Part shown: one piece after another, positions 14,576-49,353 of the stretch
Layout of the letters: every line of letters starts with the position of its first letter
Position numbering within the stretch: the stretch's first letter is position 1
Source: Eubacteriales bacterium
GTDB lineage: Bacteria; Bacillota; Clostridia; Oscillospirales; QAKW01
Assembly: GCA_045636365.1 (NCBI GenBank)
Contig: JAZTXG010000031.1
Location: 6,121-70,120 of the forward strand
Reading direction: 5' to 3'
DNA: 64,000 nucleotides
The notes under the pieces: model-generated
What the model saw: only the letters and a program-made list of their open reading frames with translations
Databases searched by the model: none
Told to the model about the DNA's origin: nothing
Made by a program: the position numbers and the translations under genes

Positions 14576-17500
14576 ATGAAACACATGAAGAAATTATCTG
14601 CCGTTCTGTTGGTTGTGGTTATGCTGATCTCCATGCTTTCTTGTATGGTGTTTGGCGCAACTGCGGCCCAGCTGGAGTTGGGCGGGCCGGTATCCATCGA
14701 GAAGATGCCCTTGCGGGGGGATTCGATCGGAACCGGTATTGTTGTCGGCGGTCAGTTGCTGACAGAACCGGATGTTCTGGTTGTCAACAGCGATTGGCAA
14801 AAAGCCAAGGGGCTCCAGCCCATCAAATTGGGCGGTGTCGTGTATAACGTCACCATCGGTGTCAACGGCTTTGCCGAAGTTGCTGACGCGCTGGATGCAG
14901 CTAATGGCCATGAGACCATCTATGTTGCTGCCGGTCTTTATGAAGCCGGCTTCATGCAGTCTGTCGGTAATATCAAGCTGTATGGTCCTAAGGCGGGTGT
15001 GAACCCCAATGATGCCAAGGATCTTTCCAAGCCCAATGCCAAGCGTCCCGCTGCAGCAGGTCTTGAAGCCTCCAAAGAGGGCGAGGCGGTTCTGACCGGC
15101 GGAATGAGCTATAGCGCAAGCGGCTCCGATCTGGTAATGGATGGCTTCTATCTGGATGGCGGGTTCTCCTTCTCCACCGATGGCTCGATGGGTACCGGTG
15201 CCACCAACTATCGTTTCGGTACGGTTGTGAAGAACTGCGTGGTCAATACTACTGCAAGCAACCTTTTCAACCATTCGGTGGGTAACAGCCCGAATATGGA
15301 GATCAGCAATCTGCGTGTTTTGGCAGGTAAGAATCTGGTCAATATCAGCGGTATGATGGACATTCGTGTCACCAACAACTATCTGAACCTGACCGGTAAT
15401 ACCATTGATACCAAGCTGGTCTGCGCCGGTAGTATGGGTTCTCATGCATTGATTGAGAACAACTATTATGAATACTGCGGCGGCAATGTTTTCAGATACG
15501 CCCACGAACTGCAGACTGCGCTCTATACGGCGATCGTTCGCAACAACTACATTGCAGATATGGGTCCTGCTGCAATGGTTCATAACACCTATTATGGTGC
15601 GCATACCCTGCCCGGTACCAATCTGCAGATCACCCATAATACGGTAATGAAGATCGACGAAGAGCAGACCTTGTTTGAGTTCCCCTTTGTCGCTTCGTAT
15701 GACTATTATTATGAATTTCCCTTTATGGTCAATATCAACGAGAACTATTTTGATCTTCCTGAAGACACGATGTTTGTCGATTCGGAAATGAATGCTTCGT
15801 TGAATTTGGTCAACAACTATTATACATCTTCTGTCCCTGTCGATCGTATTACTAAACATGAGGACACAAAGCTGGACCTCTATCCCTACTATGCAGACGA
15901 AGCAATGACCAAATTGGTCGGCAGCTTCACAACTGAAATGACCAACGCGGAGATTGATCATGTGAATAAGAGAATCACCATCAATCTTGCAAAAATGGGC
16001 AATCCGACCTCTATCGATCTGAGCGCTGTGCTCAAGACCGATGTAGAGTGCAGTTGGAAACTTTATGAAGATCGGACTTTGACCAAAGAAGTTTCGAATA
16101 AGATCGCTTATCCTTCCGGTGTAGCGACTCAGTATTTCGCCGAGATCACCACTTTGGATGGTAAGGGCGGTGTGGTCTATGAGATCCGCCTGCTCTCCGG
16201 CGACAGTACCGAAGCCGCGCTGGTGGATGTTGTCTTTAGCAGCCATCGCGTTGACGCTCCCGTAATCTTAGGTAAAACCTTTACTTATAATCTCCCTTCG
16301 GATCTGGCTTTCGTCGATTACGAACTGAAGGTCTCTGCCGGCGCAGAATACGAAGTTTATGCCGAGTATGATCAATCCTTCAATAACCATAAGCCTTTTG
16401 AAGATATCGGAAATTATATTCCCCATGGCGGATATCAGTTCGATGTGGTTATCACATCCGGCGATGGAATAAAGAAAGACGTTTATACCGTTGTGTTTAA
16501 CCGCGGGCGTAATGAAGCGAGCGATCCCAGCCTGATCGGCGGCAAAGCTCCTTCCAACGGGCAATACAGAATGTTGCGTGACGGCTCCTTGCTCTTTACC
16601 AGCGAGCAGCTGCTGACCAAAGCAACCTTTGAGTTGACCGCCACCCCCGGCGCTTCCTATACCATCTTCTCCGATGCGGCGAAGAAGACCGCTGTATCTT
16701 CCTCCAAGCAGCTCAAAGAGATTGCTTTGAAGGAAGGCGAGACCACCTTCTATGTCGAGGTCCGCGATGGTGTGTATACCAATACCATTCCCTTTATCGT
16801 TCGTAACGAAGGCAAATCTTCGGCGGCTGATATTGTCGGTGTGGCCGGTCTTTCTCCCATCATTAACAATAATGTTATCACTGTCCAGAGCGGTGGCGAT
16901 AGCATCAACGTCGTCTTTAATACCAGCGATCCCTATGCGGTGATCAAGGTATATGCCGATCCTGCAAGAAAGATCGCCTTGGAGTATACCTCCAACCCGA
17001 TCGAAGAAGAGCCCAACCGTTTTATCGATGAGCGCTCCTTCAATCTGGATATTACCCATGCGGTATCGAAATACTATGTTGATTGTATTGCTGAAAACGG
17101 TAAGGTCAATCAATACGACCTGATCATCACCAAGAATGTAAAGGTCAATGCGTATAATGATGTTCCTGAAGATGCATGGTATAAGAAGTATGTGGAATCT
17201 GCAACCGGCGACGGTGTCCTGCAAGGCTCTCCCAGCGGAAGCGAATTTGCATTCCGCGGAGATGATAATACCACCCGCCAAGAAATGGCGATTGTCGCCA
17301 GCCGCCTGCTTGGTATTAACACCACCTCCTTCGCCGATGTGAAACTTCCCTTTGCTGATACTGCCAAGATCGCCGATTGGGCGGTTGGCAATGTCAAGGT
17401 GGCCTACTATTTTGGTATTATGAAGGGTTCGGCCGATGCAACCGGCTTGAACTTCCACCCCGCAAGCGACATCAAGCGCGAAGAAGTCATTGCGATGTTC

Positions 17501-17695
17501 GTCCGTCTGTTCAACCTGAGCGATAGCGCCGATCTGACCGAATTTAAAGATTATGCATCGGTATCCTCCTGGGCTGTTGAGTCTATGGAAGCCGCAGTTG
17601 CTTCCGGCTTGATCGAGGGCGACGACAACGAAATGTTGAATCCCCAAAAGCCCATCACCCGCGCAGAACTTGCCGCGATGATTTCCAGAGTATAA
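14576..17695 (+). CDS. large secreted surface protein: parallel beta-helix repeats, Ig/cadherin-like beta-sandwich modules, three C-terminal SLH domains
   Basis: ATG at 14576 follows the RBS aggagg and gives a signal peptide MKHMKKLSAVLLVVVMLISML. NNY-type beta-helix repeats recur (VTNNYLNL, IENNYYEY, VRNNYIAD, ITHNTV, INENYF, LVNNYY). The last ~180 aa hold three SLH repeats (..FRGDDNTTRQEMA.., ..FHPASDIKREEV.., ..LNPQKPITRAELA..). Confidence 0.8.
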   Translation: MKHMKKLSAVLLVVVMLISMLSCMVFGATAAQLELGGPVSIEKMPLRGDSIGTGIVVGGQLLTEPDVLVVNSDWQKAKGLQPIKLGGVVYNVTIGVNGFAEVADALDAANGHETIYVAAGLYEAGFMQSVGNIKLYGPKAGVNPNDAKDLSKPNAKRPAAAGLEASKEGEAVLTGGMSYSASGSDLVMDGFYLDGGFSFSTDGSMGTGATNYRFGTVVKNCVVNTTASNLFNHSVGNSPNMEISNLRVLAGKNLVNISGMMDIRVTNNYLNLTGNTIDTKLVCAGSMGSHALIENNYYEYCGGNVFRYAHELQTALYTAIVRNNYIADMGPAAMVHNTYYGAHTLPGTNLQITHNTVMKIDEEQTLFEFPFVASYDYYYEFPFMVNINENYFDLPEDTMFVDSEMNASLNLVNNYYTSSVPVDRITKHEDTKLDLYPYYADEAMTKLVGSFTTEMTNAEIDHVNKRITINLAKMGNPTSIDLSAVLKTDVECSWKLYEDRTLTKEVSNKIAYPSGVATQYFAEITTLDGKGGVVYEIRLLSGDSTEAALVDVVFSSHRVDAPVILGKTFTYNLPSDLAFVDYELKVSAGAEYEVYAEYDQSFNNHKPFEDIGNYIPHGGYQFDVVITSGDGIKKDVYTVVFNRGRNEASDPSLIGGKAPSNGQYRMLRDGSLLFTSEQLLTKATFELTATPGASYTIFSDAAKKTAVSSSKQLKEIALKEGETTFYVEVRDGVYTNTIPFIVRNEGKSSAADIVGVAGLSPIINNNVITVQSGGDSINVVFNTSDPYAVIKVYADPARKIALEYTSNPIEEEPNRFIDERSFNLDITHAVSKYYVDCIAENGKVNQYDLIITKNVKVNAYNDVPEDAWYKKYVESATGDGVLQGSPSGSEFAFRGDDNTTRQEMAIVASRLLGINTTSFADVKLPFADTAKIADWAVGNVKVAYYFGIMKGSADATGLNFHPASDIKREEVIAMFVRLFNLSDSADLTEFKDYASVSSWAVESMEAAVASGLIEGDDNEMLNPQKPITRAELAAMISRV

Positions 17696-17910: not shown

Positions 17911-19887
17911 ATGAGAACCATAAAAAGTTTGCTGGCAGCGATAATGACTATTGTTATGATCGTATGCATGAGCGTGTCTGCGTTCGCAGCGTATGAAGAA
18001 ATTATATATGACGACGTTCATGATATGTACGGGACAACGCTGTCTGAAGTAAACCTTCATTATATCCGCTTTGTCGATAAACTTGGAATCATTACCGCGC
18101 ATACCAACGGCAGCTTTGATCCCTCCGGCAAGCTCACACGCGGCGAGGCATTGAAGATCGCGTATCGGATGCTGCACTACGGTTATGACGAACTTGCCGA
18201 TTATGAAAGCGCCATCACCTCCTTTGATGAGATGGAAGGCGGTGATATTTCCGATACCGCTATGATTCTTCCTTATGTTGCTTGGGGCGAAGACTTTCAG
18301 CTGATCAGCGGTGAGTATGTTCCCGAGAAGAAGTTTGAGGCGGATCGCAATATCTCCGGCGAAGAGTTCATCACCCTCATTACCAAGACCTGCGGCATTG
18401 CCACCGGCGAAGATAACGCTGCGGAATACGAAGAGTTCCAGACCGTGATTTTGGAAGGCTCCGAAGTGGATGCATCTGTGGAGAGCATCAACCGTGAGCA
18501 AGCCGCGATCATTGTGGCGCGCGCGATGCTGTATGATGCCAATGTCGGCACCATCGATAGCGAAATGTTTGCCAGCTTCCGTGATTTCGATGGCAACCTG
18601 TTGGATTGCCTTGCAACAAAGATTTATGGCTGTAATACCGTCGCCCTCACCATCCGCGGTACCGAAAACCGCCCGATGAACTACGAGGGAATTATCAAAG
18701 AGGTTCTTCTTTCCAACGGTGTGCAGACCGATGTCGGCGCAGACCTGAGCGAGTTTGTCGGCTATAATATCGATATTGTTTATTTGGATAAAGATCATTC
18801 CGGCACCTTTACCGAGGATGAAGAGCTGATTACTTATCAGATTGCTTCTCCCATTGTCAATAAAGTTCCTCTTACTGAAATCTCTGTCAATAGTTTCTCC
18901 AGCCTCTCCGGTACCTCTACGAGTAGTACATATGCAATTTTCTCCAATACCATGCTGTATCTCAACGATGATGTATGGCCGTTGGGGGATGTATATAACC
19001 TGACCAAGGCGGTCAGCGTTGTAAACTTCAAAACACCCACCTTGATCACCGGCAGACCCAATCTGGAACTTACCTTTATTCAGCACGGCTCTGCGGAAAA
19101 CGCCGATGTGGTTCTGGCAACCGAATGGATCCCCGGCAAGCTGATGACGGTGACCGACAATTATATGTCTGTTTATAGTTATTATGACGGCAGCGTTCAT
19201 GTGTATGACGACAACGACATTGTCCTCAAAGGAATTGCCAATCCCAAAAGCGGCGACTATGTCAACTTCTATGTTGCTTCCGGCAAGCTTTATCTTTCCG
19301 CTGGTACCGTAGAAGAAATGGAAAAGATCGCTGCGACTAACGTAGGCGGTCTGGACGGTATTAAGGACAGCGCCGCCACGAACGGCAAAGGATACTATGC
19401 ACACTCCTTTGTAAATAAACCCACCATCAATATCAAAGAAGTGGTCGGCCCTGTTGTAGCCGTTTTGGATTCCACCCGCGTCTCCTATCTGGCCTATGAA
19501 GAGAAGAAGGCGACCAAGGATGTAGCGGTCGAGATTCTCGATATCACTGCCAATGCCAATACCGCTAAGGTGAAGGTTCGCGCTTTGGATACCGGTAAGG
19601 AATCCGAATTGACTGTCGATCTCAATCGCATCTCTTCCAAAGAGGGTGTCATTGATATCGGTGATATGTATACTTATTACACAACCGCCGGCGGTAAGGT
19701 CGTTATGGACGAGATCGCTCCGGTCAAGACCGTTGCGATCGAGACCGAAGATTATTTCATTCTCGATGGCGGCAGAAAGGTTCTCAAGACCGAAGGCTAT
19801 GTTTCCGATACCGAAAGCTTGAAGAGCGGCGAAGTGGTCCTTTATATGGATGCATACGACGGTGTCTGGGCTTCCTACGAAGCATAA
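17911..19887 (+). CDS. secreted protein with three N-terminal SLH domains (S-layer protein candidate)
   Basis: Signal peptide ends in SVSAFA|AYEE. SLH-like repeats follow (..FDPSGKLTRGEALKIAYRML.., ..FEADRNISGEEFITLI.., ..SINREQAAIIVARAM..). The remaining ~450 aa are beta-rich with no motif I recognise. Confidence 0.75.
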   Translation: MRTIKSLLAAIMTIVMIVCMSVSAFAAYEEIIYDDVHDMYGTTLSEVNLHYIRFVDKLGIITAHTNGSFDPSGKLTRGEALKIAYRMLHYGYDELADYESAITSFDEMEGGDISDTAMILPYVAWGEDFQLISGEYVPEKKFEADRNISGEEFITLITKTCGIATGEDNAAEYEEFQTVILEGSEVDASVESINREQAAIIVARAMLYDANVGTIDSEMFASFRDFDGNLLDCLATKIYGCNTVALTIRGTENRPMNYEGIIKEVLLSNGVQTDVGADLSEFVGYNIDIVYLDKDHSGTFTEDEELITYQIASPIVNKVPLTEISVNSFSSLSGTSTSSTYAIFSNTMLYLNDDVWPLGDVYNLTKAVSVVNFKTPTLITGRPNLELTFIQHGSAENADVVLATEWIPGKLMTVTDNYMSVYSYYDGSVHVYDDNDIVLKGIANPKSGDYVNFYVASGKLYLSAGTVEEMEKIAATNVGGLDGIKDSAATNGKGYYAHSFVNKPTINIKEVVGPVVAVLDSTRVSYLAYEEKKATKDVAVEILDITANANTAKVKVRALDTGKESELTVDLNRISSKEGVIDIGDMYTYYTTAGGKVVMDEIAPVKTVAIETEDYFILDGGRKVLKTEGYVSDTESLKSGEVVLYMDAYDGVWASYEA

Positions 19888-20010: not shown

Positions 20011-20026
20011 GCACAATATATAGTGT
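20011..20026. promoter_or_regulatory. NrdR box 1 (near-consensus)
   Basis: gCACAATATATAGTGT matches the 16-bp palindromic NrdR box ACACwATATaTwGTGT at 15 of 16 positions. Confidence 0.7.
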
Positions 20027-20042
20027 TTTGCAAAAAATAACA

Positions 20043-20058
20043 GAAATATATATTGTGT
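20043..20058. promoter_or_regulatory. NrdR box 2 (degenerate left arm)
   Basis: gaaATATATATTGTGT. Its centre is 32 bp from box 1. Confidence 0.5.
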
Positions 20059-20064
20059 TTGCTA

Positions 20065-20094
20065 TTGACAGAACACCATATCTCGTGTTAAAAT
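20065..20094 (+). promoter_or_regulatory. putative sigma-A promoter of the nrd operon
   Basis: TTGACA at 20065-20070, 18-nt spacer, TAAAAT at 20089-20094. Confidence 0.55.
20073..20088. promoter_or_regulatory. NrdR box 3, inside the promoter spacer
   Basis: ACACCATATCTCGTGT has both ACAC/GTGT arms intact. Its centre is 30 bp from box 2. It lies between the TTGACA and the -10. Confidence 0.6.
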
Positions 20095-20133: not shown

Positions 20134-20847
20134 ATGAAGGGAAATGCCAAGAAAATGACGATTGAAGGCTTGCAAAAACTAACATTGCTGGATTATCCCG
20201 GCCGTACAGCCTGCACCATTTTTTTGGCAGGCTGTAATTTTCGTTGCCCTTTTTGCCATAACTTTGAATTGGTGGCAAAGCCGACCGCTCCGCTGATGAC
20301 CGATGAGGAACTGTTGGAATTTTTGCAAAAGCGTAAAGGACTGCTGGATGGCGTTGCCATCACCGGCGGCGAACCTCTGCTGCGAAAAGAACTGCCCGAA
20401 TTGTTGCGAAAGATCAAAGGTTTGGGCTATGCGGTCAAATTGGATACTAACGGTAGCTTCCCTGCCCGCTTGAAAGCGCTGGTGGAGGAAGGTTTGGTCG
20501 ATTATGTGGCGATGGATGTTAAAAACGCACCCGAGCGCTATGGCGAGACGGTCGGCTTTTTGAAGCTGGAACTTTCCGCCATCCGCGAGAGCATCGATTT
20601 TCTTTTGAGCGATGCGGTGGATTATGAATTCCGGACCACAGTCATTGAGCAGTATCATTCCGAAAAGGAGATTCGCGCCATTGCGGAGTGGATCCAAGGC
20701 GCCAAGCGCTGGTTTTTGCAGCAGTTTAAAGCCTCGGAGCGGGTCCCCAATAGAGAGCTCACCCCGCCGAGTTATCAAAAAATGCAGGAATATCTGCAGA
20801 TTGCCAAGCAGATCATTCCGGAGACCGAATTGAGAGGGGTGGGATAA
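20134..20847 (+). CDS. nrdG: anaerobic ribonucleoside-triphosphate reductase activating protein (radical SAM)
   Basis: Has the LLDYPGRTACTIFLAGCNFRCPFCHN radical-SAM CxxxCxxC cluster and GVAITGGEPL. The start could also be the ATG at 20155; both have weak RBSs. Confidence 0.9.
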   Translation: MKGNAKKMTIEGLQKLTLLDYPGRTACTIFLAGCNFRCPFCHNFELVAKPTAPLMTDEELLEFLQKRKGLLDGVAITGGEPLLRKELPELLRKIKGLGYAVKLDTNGSFPARLKALVEEGLVDYVAMDVKNAPERYGETVGFLKLELSAIRESIDFLLSDAVDYEFRTTVIEQYHSEKEIRAIAEWIQGAKRWFLQQFKASERVPNRELTPPSYQKMQEYLQIAKQIIPETELRGVG

Positions 20848-20848
20848 A

Positions 20849-21478
20849 ATGAACGTATTTTTAATGCAAGGGGATTCCATCACCGACGCAGGGCGCGACA
20901 GAAACGTCGATCCGGCACCGTATCACGCGCTGGGAAAAGGCTACGCAGCTTTGACTGCTTCCGCGCTGGAACTGAAATATCCCGGCGAATATACCTATAT
21001 CAATCGAGGAAAAAGCGGGAACCGCATTGTGGATCTGTTTGCTCGCGATAAGTTGGATCTGATCAATCTCAAGCCCGATATTTTGAGTATTTTAATTGGT
21101 GTCAACGATGTTTTGCATGAGTATAGCCGTCAAAACGGTGTGGAGCCTGAAAAATTCGAAATGATGTATAACCTGTTGCTGGATGAGGTGCAGGAGGCTC
21201 TGCCCGATGTTAAAGTGATTTTGATGGGTGCATTTGTAATGCCTAATTTGCAAGACTATGATTACGCTTCCTTCCGCGCCGATGTGGCCGAGCGTGCTTC
21301 CATCGCCAAGAAGATCGCCGATGCACGTGGCTTCAAATATGTGGATCTGCAAAGCTTGTTTGATCAAGCGGAGGATTGCGGTGTTCAACATCTGACTAAA
21401 GATGGCATCCACCCCGATTATGCTGGCTGCGAATTGATTAAAGATGCGTTGGTTGCGGCATTTGAGGAGGTGCGGTAA
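20849..21478 (+). CDS. SGNH/GDSL-family hydrolase (paralog 1)
   Basis: Has block I LMQGDSITD, block II GKSGNRIVD, block III LIGVNDV and block V DGIHPD. Lies 1 nt after the nrdG stop. Confidence 0.8.
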   Translation: MNVFLMQGDSITDAGRDRNVDPAPYHALGKGYAALTASALELKYPGEYTYINRGKSGNRIVDLFARDKLDLINLKPDILSILIGVNDVLHEYSRQNGVEPEKFEMMYNLLLDEVQEALPDVKVILMGAFVMPNLQDYDYASFRADVAERASIAKKIADARGFKYVDLQSLFDQAEDCGVQHLTKDGIHPDYAGCELIKDALVAAFEEVR

Positions 21479-22114: not shown

Positions 22115-24487
22115 ATGTATCACGTAATTAAGCGCGATGGCGCCGAGGCTGATTTTAATATTGCCAAGATCAGTGTAGCCATCCAAAAGGCATTTGATGC
22201 CGTTGGCAAGGAATCCCACCCCAGCATTATCGACCTTCTTGCGTTGAAGGTTACCGCTCATTTTGAAAGCAAGGTTAAGGACGGTAAGATCGCCGTTGAA
22301 GAGATTCAGGATAGTGTCGAGGCCATCCTCAGCGAATCGGGCTATGCCGATGTCGCTAAAGCATACATTCTGTATCGTAAGCAGCGGGAAAAGGTCCGTA
22401 ACCTCAAGACCACCTTCTTGGATTATAAGTCCTTGGTGGATAGCTATGTCAACGTTACCGACTGGCGTGTAAAGGAAAACTCCACCGTGACTTATTCGGT
22501 GGGTGGCTTGATCCTTTCCAACAGCGGCGCCATCACCGCAAACTATTGGCTGAGCGAGATCTACGATGCCGAGATCGCCGATGCTCATCGCAATGCCGAT
22601 ATCCATATCCATGACCTTTCGATGCTGACCGGTTATTGCGCCGGTTGGTCCTTGAAGCAGCTGATCAAGGAAGGCTTGGGCGGTGTTCCCGGAAAGATCA
22701 CCTCTGCCCCCGCTAAGCACTTGGTTTCTTTGTGCAACCAGATGGTCAACTTCCTTGGCATTATGCAGAATGAATGGGCAGGCGCACAAGCCTTCTCTTC
22801 CTTTGATACTTATCTGGCACCTTTTGTTAAGGTGGACAATCTTTCTTATGGCGAAGTCAAGAACTGCATCCAGTCCTTCATCTTCGGTGTCAATACCCCC
22901 AGCCGTTGGGGTACTCAGGCTCCCTTCTCTAATATTACTTTGGACTGGACCGTTCCTGCCGACTTAAAGGATCTGCCTGCCATCGTCGGCGGCAAGGAGA
23001 TGGATTTCACCTACGGCGATTGTAAGGAAGAGATGGATATGATCAACCGCGCCTTTATCGAGACGATGATCGAAGGCGATGCCAATGGTCGCGGCTTCCA
23101 ATATCCCATCCCCACCTATTCCATCACCAAGGATTTCGATTGGTCCGAGACCGAGAACAATAAACTGCTCTTTGAGATGACCGCTAAATACGGCACTCCC
23201 TATTTCTCCAACTATATCAATAGTGATATGGAGCCCAGCGATGTCCGCAGTATGTGCTGCCGCCTGCGCTTGGATCTGCGCGAGCTGCGTAAAAAGTCCG
23301 GTGGCTTCTTCGGCTCCGGCGAAAGCACCGGTTCGGTCGGCGTGGTTACCATCAACCTGCCCCGCATCGCATTCCAATCCGCCAGCGAAAAGGAATTCTA
23401 TGCACGCCTCGATAAGCTGCTGGATATCTCCGCTCGCTCCCTGCACGTAAAGCGTACCGTCATCACCAAGTTCCTGGATGAAGGCCTCTATCCCTATACC
23501 AAGCGGTATCTGGGTACCTTCAATAACCATTTCTCCACCATCGGCTTGGTCGGTATGAACGAAACCGCATTGAACGCTTGCTGGCTGCGTAAGAACCTGA
23601 CCACCGAAGAAGGTCAGAAGTTTGCCAAGGATGTTCTGAACCATATGCGTAACCGCCTTTCCGATTATCAGGAAGAATACGGTGATCTTTATAACTTGGA
23701 GGCTACTCCCGCCGAATCCACCTCTTATCGTTTGGCAAAGCACGATACCAGCCGCTTCCCCGGCATCATCACCGCTAATATGGACGGTACTCCCTACTAT
23801 ACCAACTCCTCTCATCTGCCTGTTGGCTATACCGAGGATATCTTCACCGCTCTGGATCTGCAGGATGAACTGCATACTCTCTATACCTCCGGTACTGTTT
23901 TCCATGCCTATATGGGTGAAAAACTGCCTACATGGAAGTCCTGCGCCGATCTGGTCCGTAAGATTGCCGAAAACTATCGTTTGCCCTATTATTCCATGAG
24001 CCCCACCTATTCGGTATGTAAGAACCACGGCTACATCACCGGCGACCAGTATACCTGCCCGCAGTGTGGCGAGAATACCGAAGTTTATAGCCGTATCACC
24101 GGCTACTATCGTCCGGTCCAGAACTGGAACGACGGTAAGGCGCAGGAATTCAAGGATCGTAAGCTCTATGATCAGCAGATCGCCATCAATAAGGTTCCCG
24201 TAAACCATGGTTGCGGCTGCGGCTGCGGCGATGCCGAGCCCGAATTGGTGGGCGGTAACCGCGCCATGCTCTTCACCACCAAAACCTGCCCCAACTGCAA
24301 GATGGTTGTTGCCATGCTGGATCAGGCGGGCTTTGAATATGAAAAGTTGGATGCCGAAGCGCCCGAAAACCGCGGCTTGGTGGATGCCTACCAGATCAAC
24401 CGCGCTCCCACCCTCATCGTCGAAACCGATGCAGGGGTAGAGAAGCTGACCAACGCTTCCGAGATCCGCGCATTTTTGAAAAAATAA
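22115..24487 (+). CDS. nrdD: anaerobic ribonucleoside-triphosphate reductase (class III) with N-terminal ATP-cone and C-terminal thioredoxin/glutaredoxin-like fusion
   Basis: 790 aa. Has an ATP-cone (MYHVIKRDG..), the loop SMCCRLRLD, a Zn ribbon C..CPQC and the glycyl-radical motif SRITGYY (Gly663). A 104-aa extension follows, with HGCGCGCGD and a redoxin fold TKTCPNCK...RAPTLIV. Confidence 0.95.
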   Translation: MYHVIKRDGAEADFNIAKISVAIQKAFDAVGKESHPSIIDLLALKVTAHFESKVKDGKIAVEEIQDSVEAILSESGYADVAKAYILYRKQREKVRNLKTTFLDYKSLVDSYVNVTDWRVKENSTVTYSVGGLILSNSGAITANYWLSEIYDAEIADAHRNADIHIHDLSMLTGYCAGWSLKQLIKEGLGGVPGKITSAPAKHLVSLCNQMVNFLGIMQNEWAGAQAFSSFDTYLAPFVKVDNLSYGEVKNCIQSFIFGVNTPSRWGTQAPFSNITLDWTVPADLKDLPAIVGGKEMDFTYGDCKEEMDMINRAFIETMIEGDANGRGFQYPIPTYSITKDFDWSETENNKLLFEMTAKYGTPYFSNYINSDMEPSDVRSMCCRLRLDLRELRKKSGGFFGSGESTGSVGVVTINLPRIAFQSASEKEFYARLDKLLDISARSLHVKRTVITKFLDEGLYPYTKRYLGTFNNHFSTIGLVGMNETALNACWLRKNLTTEEGQKFAKDVLNHMRNRLSDYQEEYGDLYNLEATPAESTSYRLAKHDTSRFPGIITANMDGTPYYTNSSHLPVGYTEDIFTALDLQDELHTLYTSGTVFHAYMGEKLPTWKSCADLVRKIAENYRLPYYSMSPTYSVCKNHGYITGDQYTCPQCGENTEVYSRITGYYRPVQNWNDGKAQEFKDRKLYDQQIAINKVPVNHGCGCGCGDAEPELVGGNRAMLFTTKTCPNCKMVVAMLDQAGFEYEKLDAEAPENRGLVDAYQINRAPTLIVETDAGVEKLTNASEIRAFLKK
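24212..24229 (+). repeat. (tgcggc)x3 hexanucleotide repeat encoding the Cys-Gly linker of NrdD
   Basis: ggt tgcggc tgcggc tgcggc gat translates to G-CG-CG-CG-D. Confidence 0.9.
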
Positions 24488-24544: not shown

Positions 24545-25444
24545 ATGTTTGATACCATTATTATCGGCGGCGGGACCGCCGGTATGACGGCCGCCATCTA
24601 CCTGCTTCGCGCAGGAAAAAAGGTGCTTTTGCTGGAATCCACCGCTCTGGGTGGGCAGATCACCGCCTCCGCCCGCATCGAAAATTTCCCCGGCTTATTC
24701 GGGGTAAGCGGGGTGGAATATGCCGACCGCTTGGCGGAGCAGATGTTTGAGTTTGGCGGCAGCATCGATCCGGTCGAAGTGGCAAAGGTGGAAAAATCCG
24801 CCGAGGGCTTTTTGGTCCGCACCACCGATGAGGAAGAATATCAAGCCAAAAGCATTATCATCGCCAGCGGCGCCGCCCATCGCCATTTGGGTGTGGAGCG
24901 GGAAGAAGAGCTGGCGGGCATCTCCTATTGCGCGGTCTGCGATGGCGCCTTCTATAAAGGCAAGGAAGTGGCTGTGGTCGGCGGCGGCAATGCTGCGGTG
25001 CAGTCGGCGCTTTCCTTGGCGGACCTTTGCAGTAAGGTAACCTTGATCCATCGCCGCGACGGCTTCCGTTGCGAGCCGGTGCTGCTGGAGCGGCTGCGCG
25101 CCAAAGAGAATGTGGAATTCCGCTTGGGCGCGGTGGTCAGCAAATTGATCGGCGAAACCAAGCTGGAAGCGGTGGAGTTGACCTATGCCGACCGCACCGA
25201 GGAGATGACCTTGGACGGCTTGTTCATTGCCATCGGTCAGCAGCCCAAAAACCAGCCCTTTGCCGAGCTTTGCGATCTGGACGAAGCGGGCTATATCGAT
25301 GCGGAAGAAGATTGCCTGACCAAAACCCCCGGTGTCTTTGCGGCGGGCGATTGCCGCAAAAAGCAGGTGCGCCAGCTGGCAACCGCCGCCGGCGACGGCG
25401 CGGTGGCAGGCTTGGCAGCTTCTGCATATATAGATAACCTCTAA
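24545..25444 (+). CDS. trxB: thioredoxin-disulfide reductase
   Basis: ATG at 24545 follows the RBS aaaggag. Has the FAD site IIGGGTAGMTAA, the redox centre YCAVCDG, the NADPH site VVGGGNAA and the C-terminal AAGDC. Confidence 0.92.
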   Translation: MFDTIIIGGGTAGMTAAIYLLRAGKKVLLLESTALGGQITASARIENFPGLFGVSGVEYADRLAEQMFEFGGSIDPVEVAKVEKSAEGFLVRTTDEEEYQAKSIIIASGAAHRHLGVEREEELAGISYCAVCDGAFYKGKEVAVVGGGNAAVQSALSLADLCSKVTLIHRRDGFRCEPVLLERLRAKENVEFRLGAVVSKLIGETKLEAVELTYADRTEEMTLDGLFIAIGQQPKNQPFAELCDLDEAGYIDAEEDCLTKTPGVFAAGDCRKKQVRQLATAAGDGAVAGLAASAYIDNL

Positions 25445-25483: not shown

Positions 25484-25541
25484 TTGCGTATGATCTGAAT
25501 ATATGTTAAAATAAATAATAATACTCTATTGGAGAATGAAG

Positions 25542-26180
25542 ATGACCGAAAAGAAGTATTTTGTTCCCGCCGGCGATTGCCGAACGGAATTTATAGAGCG
25601 AAAAAGCCGATTTATAACCAGCATAGCCCGCGTGGAGTCGGTGGAAGAAGCGGACGCCTTTTTGAATAAGATCCGCGCCGAATTCCCCGATGCCACCCAT
25701 AACTGCGCGGCATACCGCATCAAGACCCCGCTGGTGGAGCGGTTTTTCGATGATGGCGAGCCGGGCGGAACGGCGGGGATGCCGATGCTGGATGTACTCA
25801 AAAAGCAGGAACTGTTTGATGTGGCGGTGGTGGTCACCCGCTACTTCGGCGGTATTCTTTTGGGCGCGGGCGGCTTGGTGCGCGCCTATTCCAAGGGCGC
25901 AGCCGATGGGGTCAAGGAAGCAGGGCTGGCGCTGATGGAGCAAGGGGTGCGGCTGAAGCTTCGCTGCAGCTATTCCCTGTATGAGCGGGTGCAGCGGATG
26001 CCCCAGCTGCAAAATGCCGAAATTCTATCTACCGAATTTGGTGCGGAGATTGAAATGGAACTGATGCTGCGGGCGTCGGAAGAGCAAGGGCTGGCGCAGG
26101 CCTTGGCGGATCTTTCGGCAGGCACCGCCACTTTAACCGCGCTGGAGCGGATGTTTTATCCTTTCAAAACAAATTGTTAA
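25542..26180 (+). CDS. yigZ: YigZ/IMPACT-family protein (UPF0029)
   Basis: Has KSRFITSIARVES...PDATHNCAAYRI and GEPGGTAG motifs. The ATG at 25542 has better RBS spacing than the track start at 25536. Confidence 0.8.
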   Translation: MTEKKYFVPAGDCRTEFIERKSRFITSIARVESVEEADAFLNKIRAEFPDATHNCAAYRIKTPLVERFFDDGEPGGTAGMPMLDVLKKQELFDVAVVVTRYFGGILLGAGGLVRAYSKGAADGVKEAGLALMEQGVRLKLRCSYSLYERVQRMPQLQNAEILSTEFGAEIEMELMLRASEEQGLAQALADLSAGTATLTALERMFYPFKTNC

Positions 26181-26251
26181 CAATTTCTTCACTTATTTCT
26201 TGCTAAAAATCGGTATACTATAGGTGAAATACATATCAACGAGGTATAAAA

Positions 26252-26935
26252 ATGAGCAGGATCTTAGTTGTAGACGACGAACAGAATATTTGCGAACTGC
26301 TGACCCTTTATTTGGTCAAGGAAGGGCATACCGCCGAAACTGCGGTAGATGGGGAAGAGGCGCTGCGGAAATTCCAGACCTTTGGCCCCGACCTGATCCT
26401 GCTGGATGTTATGCTGCCCAAAAAGGATGGATGGCAGGTCTGCCGCGAGATTCGGCAGAGTTCCAATGTGCCTATTATTATGATCTCCGCTAAGGGCGAG
26501 ACCTTCGATAAGGTCTTGGGCTTGGAGCTGGGCGCGGATGATTATATCACCAAACCCTTCGATTCCAAAGAAGTGATGGCGCGGATCAAGACGGTGCTGC
26601 GCCGCGTGGGCTCGGTGGCAGAAGAAAGCCGCCAGGAAGTGGAATATCCCGACCTTTTCGTTTCGCTCACCAATTATAAATTGGTGGTGGCGGGAAAGCA
26701 GGTGGATGCACCGCCCAAGGAGATCGAGCTGCTTTATCATCTGGCGAAAAATCCCAATCGGGTGTTCACCCGCGACCAACTGCTGGATGAGATCTGGGGC
26801 TTTAAATATTTCGGCGATTCCCGCACCGTAGACGTCCATATCAAGCGGATCCGCGAAAAGCTGGAGGGCGCTTCCGACCGCTGGAAGATCCAGACGGTCT
26901 GGGGCATCGGCTATAAATTTGAAACGGTGGACTAA
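26252..26935 (+). CDS. OmpR/PhoB-family response regulator
   Basis: Receiver domain (ILVVDDE..DLILLDVMLP..K) plus a winged-helix output domain (LTNYKL...TVWGIGYKF). Confidence 0.9.
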   Translation: MSRILVVDDEQNICELLTLYLVKEGHTAETAVDGEEALRKFQTFGPDLILLDVMLPKKDGWQVCREIRQSSNVPIIMISAKGETFDKVLGLELGADDYITKPFDSKEVMARIKTVLRRVGSVAEESRQEVEYPDLFVSLTNYKLVVAGKQVDAPPKEIELLYHLAKNPNRVFTRDQLLDEIWGFKYFGDSRTVDVHIKRIREKLEGASDRWKIQTVWGIGYKFETVD

Positions 26936-26938
26936 CCT

Positions 26939-28357
26939 GTGCATAAACGAATTTTTCTGCGTTATTTTAATGTATGCGCTCTGATCATATTCCTGACAGT
27001 GTTTACCTTGAGCGCGGTGACCTCGGTTGCCTTTGCCTATCGCAATATCCGCGAGCAGGATCGGAATATGGAAAAGGCAGCGCAAAAGATTGCATCGATG
27101 CTGGAAGAGGTTCCGGAAAACTATAGTTTCTTTGTCGGATCCATAATGGAAGGTTCTATCGAAACAGTCAAAGAGACCATCGATTGCGATGTTCTGATCG
27201 TGAATCGAAGCGGAACCTTAGTTCAAAGTACGCTGCAAAGCGGCGCGACCGTTTCGTTGCCCAAAGAGGCGGTGGATGCGGTTTTGAGCGGGGAGTCCTA
27301 TCATCGGCAAAGGGTATTTATCCGCGAGCAGGGCAATGCTTATACTGTTGGTGCCCCGATCTACAGCGATCGTCAGGTCGTCGGCGGGGTGTTTGTCACC
27401 GCCCGTCAGCTGCGGATCGGCTCGGAATTTGGCGGTATTCTGCCCAGCTTTCTTCTCTGGGGAATTCTTATATTAATTTTGGCGGTAGTGATCCTTTATT
27501 TTGTCACCAAGCAGATCACCCGCCCGCTTTATGAGATGGCGATTGCCGCCCGCTCCTATTCCAAGGGCGATTTTTCCCGCAGGATCAGTGTTGCGCCGGA
27601 AGGCGAGCTGGGAGCCTTGGCCTTTACATTTAATCAAATGGCGGAAAATCTGGACCGCTTAGAGGCCACTCGCCGCGAGTTCATCGCCGATGTTTCCCAC
27701 GAATTGCGTACCCCGATGACCACCATCGGCGGATTCATCGACGGGATTTTAGACGGCACCATCCCGCCGGAAGCGGAGCAGAAATATCTGCTTTTGGTTT
27801 CGGAAGAAGTGAAGCGATTATCCCGTATGGTGAATAATCTTCTGGATGTGGCAAAGATCCAATCGGGCGAGATTACTTATCAGATGGAGCCCTTCGATCT
27901 GACCGAGCTTGCCTACCGCGTGATGCTGACGATGGAAGATCGCATCGCGGAGCGTGGCATCGAGCTGACCCACGCGCTGCCCGAAGAATCGGTCTATGTT
28001 CTGGGGGACCACGATGCCATCCATCGTGTCATCTATAATTTGATGGATAACGCGGTGAAATTCACCGCCGAGCAAGGGAAGATCCATCTGGGCATCTTCC
28101 GCCGCGGAAATAAGGTCTTTTTCGCTGTCCGCAATAGCGGCGCGGGCATCCCCGAAAAAGAAGTCGGAAAGATCTTTGAACGTTTTTATAAAACCGATAA
28201 AAGCCGCGGCGAAAACCGCAAAGGTGTTGGTCTGGGGCTTTATATGGTCAAAAATATTATTGAAGCCCACGGCGAAGATCTTTTTGTTTCGTCGGAGGAA
28301 GGCGTTTTCGCCGAATTTTCCTTCTCCTTGAAGGAAGTCAAAGAAATTGGAGAATAA
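26939..28357 (+). CDS. sensor histidine kinase (two TM helices, HAMP, HisKA, HATPase_c)
   Basis: GTG start 3 nt after the regulator stop. Has the H-box FIADVSHELRTPMT, the N-box YNLMDNAVKF and G-boxes RNSGAGI / GVGLGLY. Confidence 0.9.
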   Translation: MHKRIFLRYFNVCALIIFLTVFTLSAVTSVAFAYRNIREQDRNMEKAAQKIASMLEEVPENYSFFVGSIMEGSIETVKETIDCDVLIVNRSGTLVQSTLQSGATVSLPKEAVDAVLSGESYHRQRVFIREQGNAYTVGAPIYSDRQVVGGVFVTARQLRIGSEFGGILPSFLLWGILILILAVVILYFVTKQITRPLYEMAIAARSYSKGDFSRRISVAPEGELGALAFTFNQMAENLDRLEATRREFIADVSHELRTPMTTIGGFIDGILDGTIPPEAEQKYLLLVSEEVKRLSRMVNNLLDVAKIQSGEITYQMEPFDLTELAYRVMLTMEDRIAERGIELTHALPEESVYVLGDHDAIHRVIYNLMDNAVKFTAEQGKIHLGIFRRGNKVFFAVRNSGAGIPEKEVGKIFERFYKTDKSRGENRKGVGLGLYMVKNIIEAHGEDLFVSSEEGVFAEFSFSLKEVKEIGE

Positions 28358-28359
28358 GT

Positions 28360-29703
28360 ATGCAAGAAAATCAAAACCCAACCCAACCGCAAGAGGAGAA
28401 CGCTCCGCGTACTGTGCAGGTTCCGCCTCTGCCCACTTATCGCTATAAGGCGGCTCCCTCGGAGCAACCATTCGCGCAGGGCGGCTATACCTATCAAAAC
28501 CCCAATCCCTATCAATCTACCTATTTTGCGCCGCCTCAGCCGAAGCCGAAGCGCAATCGCGGCCTGATCATAACCGCGGTGAGCGCGGCGGTCATTATGT
28601 TGATCTGTTGTACCGCGGTGGTAACGGCAATGTTGATGGACGCGAAAGGATATATGAAACCTTCGGAAGATTTTATGAATCCCTTTGGCGGCGAAGAAGA
28701 GTCTGCACCGAGCAACCAAACCTCCGGCGATGTGGATCGGGATGAAAATGCAATCTACGAGCTGCCCGATATGACCACCGAGCAAAAGAGCGGTGAAGAG
28801 CTTTCGCTGGTGGATATCAACAAAAAAGTGAAGAACAGCGTTGTCGCGGTATTGATCGCGGAAGGGGAGCAAGAGGCGGAATTTTCCGGCTCCGGCTTTA
28901 TCATCAGCGCGGATGGATATATTATTACCAATACCCATGTGGTGGAAGGCGCATCCTCCATCAAAATCGTGTTGCACGATGGGATCACCGAATATAAGGC
29001 GACCATCGTCGGCGCCGATGAGCGCTCCGATCTGGCGGTGCTGAAGGTGGATGCCAAGGATCTGTCGCCGGTGGATTTAGGAGATAGCGCGCTTCTGGAA
29101 GTGGGGGAGACGGTGGTCGCCATCGGCAACCCCTACGGAATGGAGCTGGCGGGAACGGTGACCAACGGGATTGTTTCTGCCCTCAACCGTAAGATCGAGA
29201 TGAACGGTTCTTATATGACCCTGATCCAGACCAACGCGTCCATCAACCCCGGCAACAGCGGCGGTCCGCTGGTCAATGCCTATGGGCAGGTGATCGGTAT
29301 TACCTCCTCCAAATTGGTCGCCAGCGGCTATGAGGGGATCGGCTTTGCCATTCCCATCAATGATGTTGTGGAGATCGCGGAAGAGCTGATTACCCACGGC
29401 AAGGTCAAGACCCGCGCCTATATCGGCATCAGCGGCAGAGATTTCACCGCGCAGGAAGCGGCGCAGTATCGGATGCCCCAAGGGGTCTTGGTGGCGGCGG
29501 TGGACCTCCATTGCGATGCGGCTGCCAAGGGTCTGCAAAAGAACGACATCATTGTCGGGTTCAACGGCGAGAAGATTATTTCGATGGCGGAACTCAATGA
29601 AAAGAAGGATGAATTCCATCCCGGCGATAAGGTGAAGATCACCTATTGGCGCAATAATAAGGAAACAACCGTCGAAATTTTGTTGACCGAAGCAAGTGAA
29701 TAA
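28360..29703 (+). CDS. htrA: HtrA/DegP-family serine protease with PDZ domain and membrane anchor
   Basis: Has a Pro/Gln-rich N-terminus, one TM helix, the catalytic triad context TNTHVV / DLAVLKV / GNSGGPL, and a C-terminal PDZ. Confidence 0.9.
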   Translation: MQENQNPTQPQEENAPRTVQVPPLPTYRYKAAPSEQPFAQGGYTYQNPNPYQSTYFAPPQPKPKRNRGLIITAVSAAVIMLICCTAVVTAMLMDAKGYMKPSEDFMNPFGGEEESAPSNQTSGDVDRDENAIYELPDMTTEQKSGEELSLVDINKKVKNSVVAVLIAEGEQEAEFSGSGFIISADGYIITNTHVVEGASSIKIVLHDGITEYKATIVGADERSDLAVLKVDAKDLSPVDLGDSALLEVGETVVAIGNPYGMELAGTVTNGIVSALNRKIEMNGSYMTLIQTNASINPGNSGGPLVNAYGQVIGITSSKLVASGYEGIGFAIPINDVVEIAEELITHGKVKTRAYIGISGRDFTAQEAAQYRMPQGVLVAAVDLHCDAAAKGLQKNDIIVGFNGEKIISMAELNEKKDEFHPGDKVKITYWRNNKETTVEILLTEASE

Positions 29704-48189: not shown

Positions 48190-49353
48190 ATGATTCGTTC
48201 TCGTCTGACATATCTGGCGATATTGATCGCGGCGTTTGTCTTTTCCCAAGCGCTGTATGATTCCATTTCGCTGTTTACATTAGCGGTGGTGCTTTTGCTG
48301 CCGATCGTTTCTCTTCTTTGCCTTTTAATCAGCTTGATGCTGGTTAAGATCCGTGCTGTCCCTGCACCGGTTAAGGTGCATCGGATGGAGCAGGTGATGA
48401 TGAAGGTGCAGATCGAGAGTAAAACACCGTTGATGTTGCCGATGATGAAATTCGGCATTACCGCCTCCAATCCCCAAGGCGATGCTTCGGTCAAGGGCTA
48501 TACCATCGCCCATTACCGCGCCTTTGGTAAAAGCATTCTGGAGATCCCGCTGCGCTTTAATGTTCGCGGGGTCTATAATGTGGGGATCGATTGGGTGGAA
48601 TTTTATGATTTTATGAAGCTCTTTCGCATTCGGCGGAAGATTGCATCCCAATCCAATATCACCGCCTGCCCCCGCGATCTGCATCTGGCGCTTTCCTTGA
48701 ACCCCAGCCCGCAGGAGCAGGAAAATACCGTGACCGCCGGCGGCAGGGAAACCAAAAACAACGGCGATTTATCGGGGATTCGGGAATTTAATGAATACGA
48801 TACCTTGCGGAATGTGCATTGGAAGCTCTCCGCCCGCCTTTCCAAAATGATCGTCAAGACCTATTGGGAAAATTCCTGCCAGAATATTATGGTGCTCGCC
48901 GACCTTTTCCCCTATGAAGAGGATCGCCTGCTCAACCGCCGCCTCACCGACGGTGTGGTGGAGGTGGTGCTGCAGGTCAGCGCCCTTCTGGCGGAGCAAG
49001 AGGTTCGTATTACCTTGGGATATCCCAATTATGATTATGTTCTTCAGCATCAAAGCATCTCCTCCATTGAGGAGCAGATGGAGGTTTCCGAAGCCTTCGC
49101 GATGGCCCCGATGATGAAGCGGGGAAGCTTGGAGCAATCCCTTTCGGAGGTGGATTTTTCTTCTCTGCAGGGCGGCGCGCTCTATATCGTCACCTCCATG
49201 CCTGCCGAGGACCTGACCAAGGCTCTGCGCCCCTATTTGCTGGGCGCAAACTTTGATCTGCAATGCATTCTCATTCGCCCCGAGCAAGAGCCCTGCAATC
49301 AACAGATGAAGCTGATTCTCTTAGAGGAATTGGAAGGGGGTGCGGAAGGATGA
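48190..49353 (+). CDS. DUF58-family protein (two N-terminal TM helices, vWA-like fold)
   Basis: Has the DUF58 signature around REFNEYDTLRNVHWKLSARLSKMIVK. Sits in the canonical position after MoxR. Confidence 0.8.
   Translation: MIRSRLTYLAILIAAFVFSQALYDSISLFTLAVVLLLPIVSLLCLLISLMLVKIRAVPAPVKVHRMEQVMMKVQIESKTPLMLPMMKFGITASNPQGDASVKGYTIAHYRAFGKSILEIPLRFNVRGVYNVGIDWVEFYDFMKLFRIRRKIASQSNITACPRDLHLALSLNPSPQEQENTVTAGGRETKNNGDLSGIREFNEYDTLRNVHWKLSARLSKMIVKTYWENSCQNIMVLADLFPYEEDRLLNRRLTDGVVEVVLQVSALLAEQEVRITLGYPNYDYVLQHQSISSIEEQMEVSEAFAMAPMMKRGSLEQSLSEVDFSSLQGGALYIVTSMPAEDLTKALRPYLLGANFDLQCILIRPEQEPCNQQMKLILLEELEGGAEG

Follow-up and report, generated by a model that had tools for sequence, protein, structure and literature searches.

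Class III ribonucleotide reductases (RNRs) supply DNA precursors in strict anaerobes. One of them, the NrdD of Neisseria bacilliformis, runs on thioredoxin (Trx) together with thioredoxin reductase (TrxR) and NADPH, according to passages of PMC9669993, PMC4493059 and PMC4390871 that relay the work of Wei et al. (2014 PNAS). It is the sole characterised thioredoxin user; the electron source of the large group of enzymes with a Met-Cys-Cys-Arg (MCCR) finger loop is unsettled, and the structures of Thermotoga maritima NrdD (TmNrdD) have left the position of the catalytic cysteines in dispute. RNRs joined to a redoxin are also on record. Rozman Grinberg et al. 2018 (PMC6187632) searched RefSeq for combinations of glutaredoxin (Grx) and RNR, and their Table S1 lists, without comment, one Glutaredoxin:NrdD protein from Lachnospiraceae bacterium TWA4 (WP_082039398.1, subclass NrdDd), which may share the C-terminal architecture described here. 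Apart from that entry we found no characterised NrdD-redoxin fusion in the literature; reviews and phylogenomic surveys of RNR extensions cover the C-terminal domains of class II and the finger loops of class III, but not this fusion. Here we describe a 64,000-nucleotide stretch of the genome of an Eubacteriales bacterium (contig JAZTXG010000031.1; the whole stretch is referred to as the window) in which a class III nrdD gene runs on, in frame, into a small redoxin domain and is followed by trxB. We consider it likely that the product is a class III RNR of the NrdD2 chemotype with a protein reductant fused to its own C-terminus, encoded in an NrdR-controlled cluster with the order nrdG, two hydrolase genes, nrdD::redoxin, trxB.

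The catalytic part of the protein is that of a class III enzyme. It has the NRDD domain, the RITGYY sequence with Gly663, the Zn ribbon and, 1.3 kb upstream of its gene, an activase gene of the NrdG2 type. With the NCBIfam equivalog PRK08270, a profile of 684 positions, the protein reaches 1141 bits (cut-off 548), and the match ends at residue 687. Because the profile is exhausted at that point, the last 104 residues are an add-on. A preliminary description of this DNA, made from the letters alone, had put the end of the core near residue 686 with a 104-residue extension behind it, and had picked out the glycyl-radical motif SRITGYY with Gly663 and a pair of adjacent cysteines in the active-site loop. 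The Pfam match (residues 121-685) and the PRK08270 limit agree with the first of these, and the two motifs were found from residue 659 onward and at residues 379-384 (SMCCRL), respectively. In public annotation the fused proteins carry the label "ribonucleoside triphosphate reductase".

Two sets of relatives were used to follow the fusion. The homologue set consists of the best 120 protein clusters, with 76-100% identity, from NCBI, ENA, JGI and Logan assemblies. The species set consists of the best 80 of at least 594 loci that were matched by the redoxin signature LF[TA][TS]xTCPNC in GTDB representatives, with one genome per species; it contains related species, and per-species counts are not counts of independent events. 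The preliminary description had suggested a database search for NrdD proteins longer than 760 amino acids (aa) with a redoxin domain; all 120 clusters are 781-814 aa long and end in the same C-terminal domain. Redoxin and RNR component form one continuous polypeptide at 78 of the 80 species loci. One of the other two ends at a contig edge. The other (L027, a metagenome-assembled genome (MAG) of an uncultured Clostridia) is the only locus of the best 80 in which the core and the redoxin lie in separate frames, which would reflect either a sequencing error or a pseudogene. The fusion occurs in Oscillospiraceae, Acutalibacteraceae, Ruminococcaceae (including Faecalibacterium prausnitzii), Christensenellales and Peptococcaceae, in the Lachnospiraceae Dorea, Mediterraneibacter and Extibacter muris, and in Erysipelotrichaceae, other Bacilli and Spirochaetes (Sphaerochaeta). 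Isolates that carry it include Pseudoflavonifractor phocaeensis, Ruminococcus turbiniformis and Extibacter muris. In this NrdD lineage the fused form is the standard one, across hundreds of Firmicutes and in some Spirochaetes. The extension noted in the preliminary description is real; with at least 594 confirmed stretches carrying the signature, it is not rare.

The fused domain is a minimal thioredoxin-fold redoxin. An AlphaFold2 (AF2) model of the isolated domain, given an input with 18 diverse homologues, had a mean predicted local distance difference test score (pLDDT) of 97 and the order beta-alpha-beta-alpha-beta-beta-alpha. Its Foldseek neighbours, with template modelling (TM) scores of 0.72-0.80, include the NrdH-redoxin of C. 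glutamicum (4fiw, TM 0.72), the mini-thioredoxin BC3987 of B. cereus, and both glutaredoxins and thioredoxins. The Pfam profile PF00462 (Glutaredoxin; gathering cut-off 22.9 bits) gave 27.3 bits in the whole protein (residues 718-752) and 32.2 bits with the isolated domain, and the top ranks of a profile search were taken by NrdH, YruB, MJ0307-type thioredoxins and the C-terminal unit of archaeal protein disulfide oxidoreductases. A redoxin fold with a CxxC site and a RAPT cis-Pro motif, as had been proposed from the sequence, is borne out by these results and by the conservation of CPNC and APTL. None of the curated NCBIfam family scores comes near its cut-off, and the domain is therefore not a member of any named family. 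Classical glutaredoxins have a CPYC-type site, a glutathione-binding TVP and the sequence GG-x-dD; here GRX_bact gives 19.6 (cut-off 90), and the cis-Pro loop reads APTL, not TVP. NrdH-redoxins are marked by a C-V/M-Q-C site and by WSGFRP; the family profile TIGR02194 gives 20.8 bits against 85.75, and the domain has CPNC and is without WSGFRP. Thioredoxins of the TrxA type have WCGPC and five strands in about 105 aa; TIGR01068 gives 18 bits against 96.8, for a domain of 75 aa with four strands and CPNC. In E. coli Trx the cis-Pro loop is IPTL, and in glutaredoxins the corresponding glutathione-binding sequence is TVP. Since APTL resembles the former and not the latter, TrxR is favoured over glutathione as the donor, and the sequence points to a TrxR-reduced, glutathione-independent redoxin.

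Residues L719, F720, C725, P726, C728, A764, P765, T766 and L767 are invariant in the fused enzymes, and CPNC is kept in 79 of 79 species loci and 117 of 120 clusters. By this measure the redoxin domain is under strong constraint. An exhaustive search of representatives with the redoxin domain returned mostly C-terminal NrdD fragments on short contigs rather than a tidy collection of stand-alone relatives. A few of the representatives (P0134, P0156, P0173, P0207 and P0202) are unusual; in some, an N-terminal fragment of thioredoxin reductase is joined to the redoxin in one short open reading frame (ORF), and one NrdD-redoxin representative is 1314 aa long. The TrxR-fragment joins and the 1314-aa protein could have arisen as chimeras of assembly, as remnants of genes or as additional fusions.

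The active site was compared with the NrdD subtypes, whose definitions are taken second-hand from PMC4493059 and PMC9669993. An NrdD2 enzyme carries a third Cys in its active site together with a Glu, and in some members there is a Met as well; the NrdD1 enzymes are without the third Cys and the Glu, and NrdD3 enzymes have the Cys without the Glu (Aurelius et al., PMC4493059). The Glu of NrdD2 takes the place of formate as the base. The window enzyme combines the beta-A Cys175 with a loop of the sequence S-M380-C381-C382-R, in which the third Cys lies beside the radical Cys. It also has Glu529 (YNLEATPAE), which aligns with the Glu of TmNrdD (FNIEQVPAE). We take this residue of TmNrdD to be the diagnostic NrdD2 Glu, presumably the E495 of Wei et al. 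2014. In three other solved structures the same column holds Leu (PcNrdD) or Tyr (9d3x and T4 NrdD); PcNrdD has been shown to be formate-dependent, and Aurelius et al. (PMC4493059) place T4 NrdD in the formate-type NrdD1 subtype. The loop of the window enzyme is MCCR rather than the MGCR of NrdD1, with which only the Met is shared, and it is not the QCCR/A of NrdD3, since Met380 and Glu529 are both there. The subtype alignment that the preliminary description had proposed therefore gave an NrdD2-type Cys and Glu. Scoring misses as absent or truncated, SMCCR is found in 120/120 clusters and 78/80 species loci, the Glu in 119/120 and 79/80, and GYCA, which contains the beta-A Cys, in 119-120/120 and 74/80. 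A redoxin covalently attached to such enzymes is independent evidence that the MCCR-plus-Glu lineage of fused NrdDs takes the thiol route at least to some extent.

The gene that follows nrdD encodes a thioredoxin reductase with CAVC, as had been noted earlier from its translation. It matches Pyr_redox_2 and scores 334.9 bits with TIGR01292; besides CAVC it has the flavin adenine dinucleotide motif GGGTAG (residues 8-13), GGGNAA (146-151) and HRRDGFR, and it thus has the GxGxxA and HRRxxxR motifs by which PMC10880999 recognises NADPH-type thioredoxin reductases (NTRs) among clostridial TrxBs. A trxB on the same strand lies directly downstream of the fusion at 59 of the 76 assessable species loci (59 of 80 in all; four end too soon). 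In most of them the gap between nrdD and trxB is -7 to +14 nucleotides (nt), often an overlap or a spacing of 2-10 nt, which suggests that the two genes are translationally coupled. The window has a longer gap, of 57 nt, in which the stop codon of nrdD and the ribosome-binding site of trxB are separated by a strong hairpin with no proper U-tract. The hairpin is missing in the closest relatives (L001-L006), and as their gap is just 2-13 nt, the region is a recent insertion of approximately 44 nt.

The neighbouring reductases fall into three classes by their pyridine-nucleotide site. HRRxxFR, the type in the window, is found at 28 loci, QNLxxxTGE at 19 (for example L015, L025 and L039) and GDANTA...TLFDxFFGD, in Bacilli, at 12 (for example L037, L042 and L059). 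HRRxxxR is therefore missing from 31 of the 59 downstream trxB genes, and the GDANTA class is also without GxGxxA. By the published criteria (PMC10880999) the QNL and TLFD enzymes are not NTRs and probably depend on ferredoxin. The conserved unit is redoxin plus flavoenzyme, with an ultimate electron donor that probably differs between lineages. A free-standing homologue of the redoxin was also found, 74 aa long (MLFGTKTCPNCK...), at 167-391 of the AT-rich metagenomic contig L081 (501 bp), where it has no NrdD tail upstream and a trxB starts 8 nt later (399-500). The redoxin-TrxR pair is, from this contig, also a module of its own.

Core and redoxin are joined by a linker that is predicted to be disordered. 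The full-length AF2 model was built from 48 close homologues and is poor overall (mean pLDDT 65, predicted TM score 0.58); in it, pLDDT is 26-39 at residues 660-713 and 72-91 across the redoxin domain, and the linker is predicted to behave as a flexible tether of 29 residues. Among relatives the linkers are 8-71 aa long and unalignable, with a composition dominated by Ala, Glu, Lys, Ser and Pro. A linker with no cysteine is found in 34 of the 120 clusters and in 40 of the 79 species. In 26 of the 27 species with at least two, the cysteines follow the spacing C-x(0-3)-C, a number that was attained in 0 of 5000 shuffles (mean 9.3 +/- 2.3), and the pair begins 16-30 residues before CPNC, mostly 24-25. 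An adjacent trxB is found at 24 of the 26 loci with such a pair, compared with 34 of the 53 without it.

The preliminary description had reported the linker motif HGCGCGCGD, which is located at residues 698-706, and a slip-prone (tgcggc)x3 repeat beneath it. The repeat is exactly where it was placed; it does not explain the motif, as the Cys codons of relatives differ. All 35 clusters of the window's clade (86-100% identity) have at least two linker cysteines, in variable surroundings (HGCGCGCGD, HGFGCCCGD, HACGCCGGD, GNCACD and others), and it is to this clade that the (Cys-Gly)3 segment is restricted. The Cys codons are preserved through synonymous changes and imperfect repeats (TGC GGC TGT GGT TGC GGC in L005), so the motif is maintained at the level of the protein, and from these codons the perfect hexamer repeat of the window strain appears incidental. 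Hexamer slippage as the sole origin of CGCGCG is ruled out by the synonymous codons, the imperfect repeats and length differences that are not multiples of six. The cysteines could form a second redox dithiol, CxC or CxxC, that passes electrons from the CPNC domain into the buried active site; we give this a minor but real chance. Their close spacing, their distance from CPNC, the retained codons and the frequent company of trxB speak for it. If true, class III would have an equivalent of the tail cysteines found at the C-terminus of class I and II reductases, a feature said to be absent from class III.

Onto the observed architecture, motif conservation, fold, linker disorder and synteny a four-step cycle can be mapped. 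Firstly, NrdG would put the radical on Gly663. The radical would then move to Cys382 in the finger loop and initiate catalysis, and the nucleoside triphosphate would be reduced by the Cys175/Cys381 pair, with Glu529 as the base, leaving an active-site disulfide. In the third step the 75-residue CPNC mini-thioredoxin would swing on its tether of approximately 29 residues, which begins directly behind the glycyl-radical domain, and re-reduce this disulfide, either directly or, where a lineage has linker CxC cysteines, possibly by way of these. Finally, the oxidised CPNC site would be recharged by TrxB from NADPH. This path, ie NADPH to TrxB to tethered redoxin to active-site disulfide, is the most likely one. 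Each of its electron-transfer steps and the preference for thiols rather than formate are inferred, the steps by analogy with the NrdD of N. bacilliformis and the functional Grx::NrdB of Facklamia ignava; the N. bacilliformis enzyme had already been named as a precedent in the preliminary description, in agreement with PMC9669993, PMC4493059 and PMC4390871.

Several observations weigh against this path. The full-length model is of too low a quality for any docking of the redoxin at the active site to be seen in it. The TIGR01292 score of TrxB is just below the trusted cut-off of 343.45, and 17 of the 76 assessable species have the fusion without an adjacent trxB. In the window itself the hairpin between nrdD and trxB makes co-transcription not certain. 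Finally, Met380 of the finger loop, a residue linked to formate chemistry, is retained, so that the enzyme may use formate, and MCCR enzymes with the Glu hold components for formate or thioredoxin (Burnim et al.).

These points bear on two other explanations of the fusion. In the one that survives better, formate would be the catalytic reductant and the redoxin a maintenance or activation factor for non-catalytic cysteines in the Zn ribbon and glycyl-radical domain, which would be kept reduced for radical installation by NrdG, or repaired after oxygen exposure. Such a role fits the retention of the Met of formate-type thiosulfuranyl chemistry, the activating effect of thioredoxin on E. coli NrdD (PMC4390871) and the position of the tether, which starts about 20 residues beyond the Zn ribbon and the glycyl loop, with those sites within reach. 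We nevertheless consider it unlikely. Wherever the region was readable, the fused enzyme has both the third Cys and the Glu, residues missing from formate-type enzymes, and an activation-only role would not predict that these residues strictly accompany the fusion; a stoichiometric tethered redoxin with a dedicated reductase also exceeds the needs of occasional repair. Slightly less probable again is a dual-reductant enzyme, in which formate and the tethered redoxin would both support turnover, with a switch set by metabolic state. The enzyme has the parts for both routes, and the variation of the partner reductase between lineages (NADPH-type; motif-less and probably ferredoxin-type; or missing from the locus) suggests flexible electron sourcing. 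However, no pyruvate formate-lyase or other formate gene was found among the ten large window ORFs that were annotated, all of which are housekeeping genes or have no match, and no enzyme has yet been shown to employ both routes. The artefact raised in the preliminary description, ie a sequencing or assembly frameshift joining nrdD to a separate small redoxin gene, can be dismissed in spite of the free-standing redoxin of L081 and the interrupted frame of the MAG locus, because all of the best 120 clusters, from four sources of assemblies, and 78 of 80 species representatives, isolates included, have the same continuous ORF.

The coordinates of the features are given in Table 1. The cluster begins with nrdG, which is upstream of the fusion in most species loci and convergent and downstream of it in Bacilli. 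Three NrdR-box-like palindromes precede nrdG. With up to three mismatches, the pattern ACACWATATATWGTGT has four matches in the 64-kb window, all of them at this site, compared with 0.25 expected. The consensus used in the scan is one that we take to be that of Rodionov and Gelfand 2005. Between nrdG and nrdD are two paralogous SGNH/GDSL hydrolase genes; a homologue is found in this position at only two of the 80 species loci (L002 and L006), and the two genes are probably operon passengers without an obvious tie to ribonucleotide reduction. A six-frame motif scan of the window found no second thioredoxin.

Table 1. Positions of the features in the 64,000-nt window. Residue numbers refer to the encoded protein.
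Feature	Position	Strand	Details
NrdR-box-like palindromes (three; spacing 32 and 30 bp)	20011-20026, 20043-20058, 20073-20088	+	pattern ACACWATATATWGTGT
sigma-70-like promoter upstream of nrdG, TTGACA-18-TAAAAT	20065-20094	+	promoter scan; best such site there, overlapped by NrdR boxes
nrdG, radical-SAM activase, NrdG2 type	20134..20847	+	TIGR02495 216.7 bits (cut-off 131); Radical_SAM, Fer4_12
two tandem paralogous SGNH/GDSL hydrolase genes	20849-21478, about 21444/21495-22091	+	Lipase_GDSL_2, E = 5e-26, 2e-26
nrdD::redoxin fusion gene	22115..24487	+	single ORF, 790 aa, stop codon included
ATP-cone, allosteric on/off domain, residues 3-92	22121..22390	+	PF03477, E = 1.9e-21
NrdD catalytic barrel and glycyl-radical domain, residues 121-685	22475..24169	+	PF13597, E = 1e-191
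beta-A Cys175	22637-22639	+	structure alignments (TmNrdD, PcNrdD, T4, 9d3x)
finger loop S379-M-C-C-R383	23249-23263	+	
Glu529	23699-23701	+	
Zn ribbon C635/H638/C648/C651	24017-24067	+	
glycyl-radical Gly663 (SRITGYY from residue 659)	24101-24103	+	
linker, residues 687-715, QQIAINKVPVNHGCGCGCGDAEPELVGGN, with Cys700, Cys702, Cys704	24173..24259	+	predicted disordered (AF2)
(TGCGGC)x3 encoding CGCGCG, residues 700-705	24212..24229	+	TRF: period 6, 3.0 copies, 100% match
minimal thioredoxin-fold redoxin, residues 716-790 (75 aa)	24260..24484	+	PF00462, AF2, Foldseek
redoxin active site C725-P-N-C728	24287-24298	+	
redoxin cis-Pro loop A764-P-T-L767 (RAPT 763-766)	24404-24415	+	
hairpin, perfect 14-bp stem, 4-nt loop	24495..24526	+	dG -25 kcal/mol, z = -5.9
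trxB, low-Mr NADPH-type thioredoxin reductase, ATG 24545, preceded by AAAGGAGAA	24545..25444	+	TIGR01292, Pyr_redox_2
trxB CAVC, residues 129-132	24929-24940	+	
trxB HRRDGFR, residues 169-175	25049-25069	+	

Some other parts of the window were also looked at. Three large ORFs, at 14576-17695 (1039 aa), 17911-19887 (658 aa) and 49263-51992 (909 aa), gave no NCBIfam hit at E <= 1e-10, and the 658-aa protein, encoded just upstream of the nrd cluster, has a signal-peptide-like start. Downstream of trxB, the region 25536-29703 contains a UPF0029/DUF1949 (YigZ/IMPACT-like) gene by Pfam, and three more ORFs whose translations read as a putative OmpR-type response regulator, a histidine kinase and a serine protease resembling HtrA (GNSGGPL). 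There is no evident tie between the genes of this region and the reductase.

A reductant covalently attached to the enzyme, with a reductase gene beside it, is genomic evidence for MCCR-plus-Glu enzymes running on thiols, and the partner reductases without NADPH motifs suggest another donor in some species, possibly ferredoxin. NrdD-redoxin, NrdG and TrxB offer a self-contained system of three proteins in which the chemistry could be tested and the encounter of redoxin and active site trapped. The lineage includes dominant commensals of the human gut (Faecalibacterium prausnitzii), and the fusion therefore bears on the synthesis of deoxynucleoside triphosphates in a sizeable part of the gut microbiota.

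Compared with the described systems, the window enzyme is closest in chemistry to N. bacilliformis NrdD. By the published accounts of that enzyme, both are glycyl-radical class III reductases with an adjacent Cys pair in the finger loop, a beta-A Cys and an active-site Glu, and the turnover disulfide of the N. bacilliformis enzyme is reduced by a thioredoxin-type protein that TrxR recharges. By the same accounts it differs in using a separate housekeeping thioredoxin and in having the loop SCCR without Met, whereas the window has a fused 75-aa CPNC domain, MCCR and trxB in the locus. In RNRdb the N. bacilliformis enzyme belongs to subclass NrdDh, and the published Grx:NrdD fusion to NrdDd. In layout the nearest case is the Grx::ATP-cone::NrdB of F. 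ignava, also a small redoxin fused to an RNR polypeptide, whose Grx has been shown to be the reductant of its enzyme (PMC6187632). That fusion is of class I, however, with the Grx at the N-terminus of the radical-generating subunit; it is glutathione-dependent and acts on the C-terminal cysteines of NrdA (PMC6187632).

The linker cysteines recall the tail Cys pair of class I and II enzymes, a vicinal dithiol in a mobile stretch at the C-terminus, able to shuttle electrons from an external redoxin into the active site. The CxC/CxxC of the linker, present in approximately one third of the fused NrdDs and thus not universal, shares that layout. An external disulfide has not been shown in class III (PMC4390871), and to that pattern the CPNC of the tethered domain and the CxC of the linker form an exception at the level of sequence. 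The redoxin domain itself is like NrdH-redoxin, BC3987, the MJ0307 family and clostridial YruB in size (72-85 aa), fold, the placing of CxxC after beta-1 and the cis-Pro loop; it differs from these small, TrxR-reducible redoxins in having CPNC rather than CVQC, CPPC or CPYC, and in being without WSGFRP.

The NrdD3 of Methanosarcina barkeri reportedly works with an NrdH-like redoxin and a ferredoxin:disulfide reductase (Wei et al. 2015 Biochemistry). As in the window, its RNR operon encodes a small redoxin and a disulfide reductase of its own (in part from PMC9176816 Table 1), but these are three separate proteins, the loop is QCCR without the Glu, and the reductase is a 4Fe-4S enzyme rather than a flavoprotein. 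Set beside all of these, the fusion is not a new kind of system. It is a widespread variant that brings together two concepts already on record, that of a class III RNR dependent on thioredoxin and that of an RNR fused to a redoxin.

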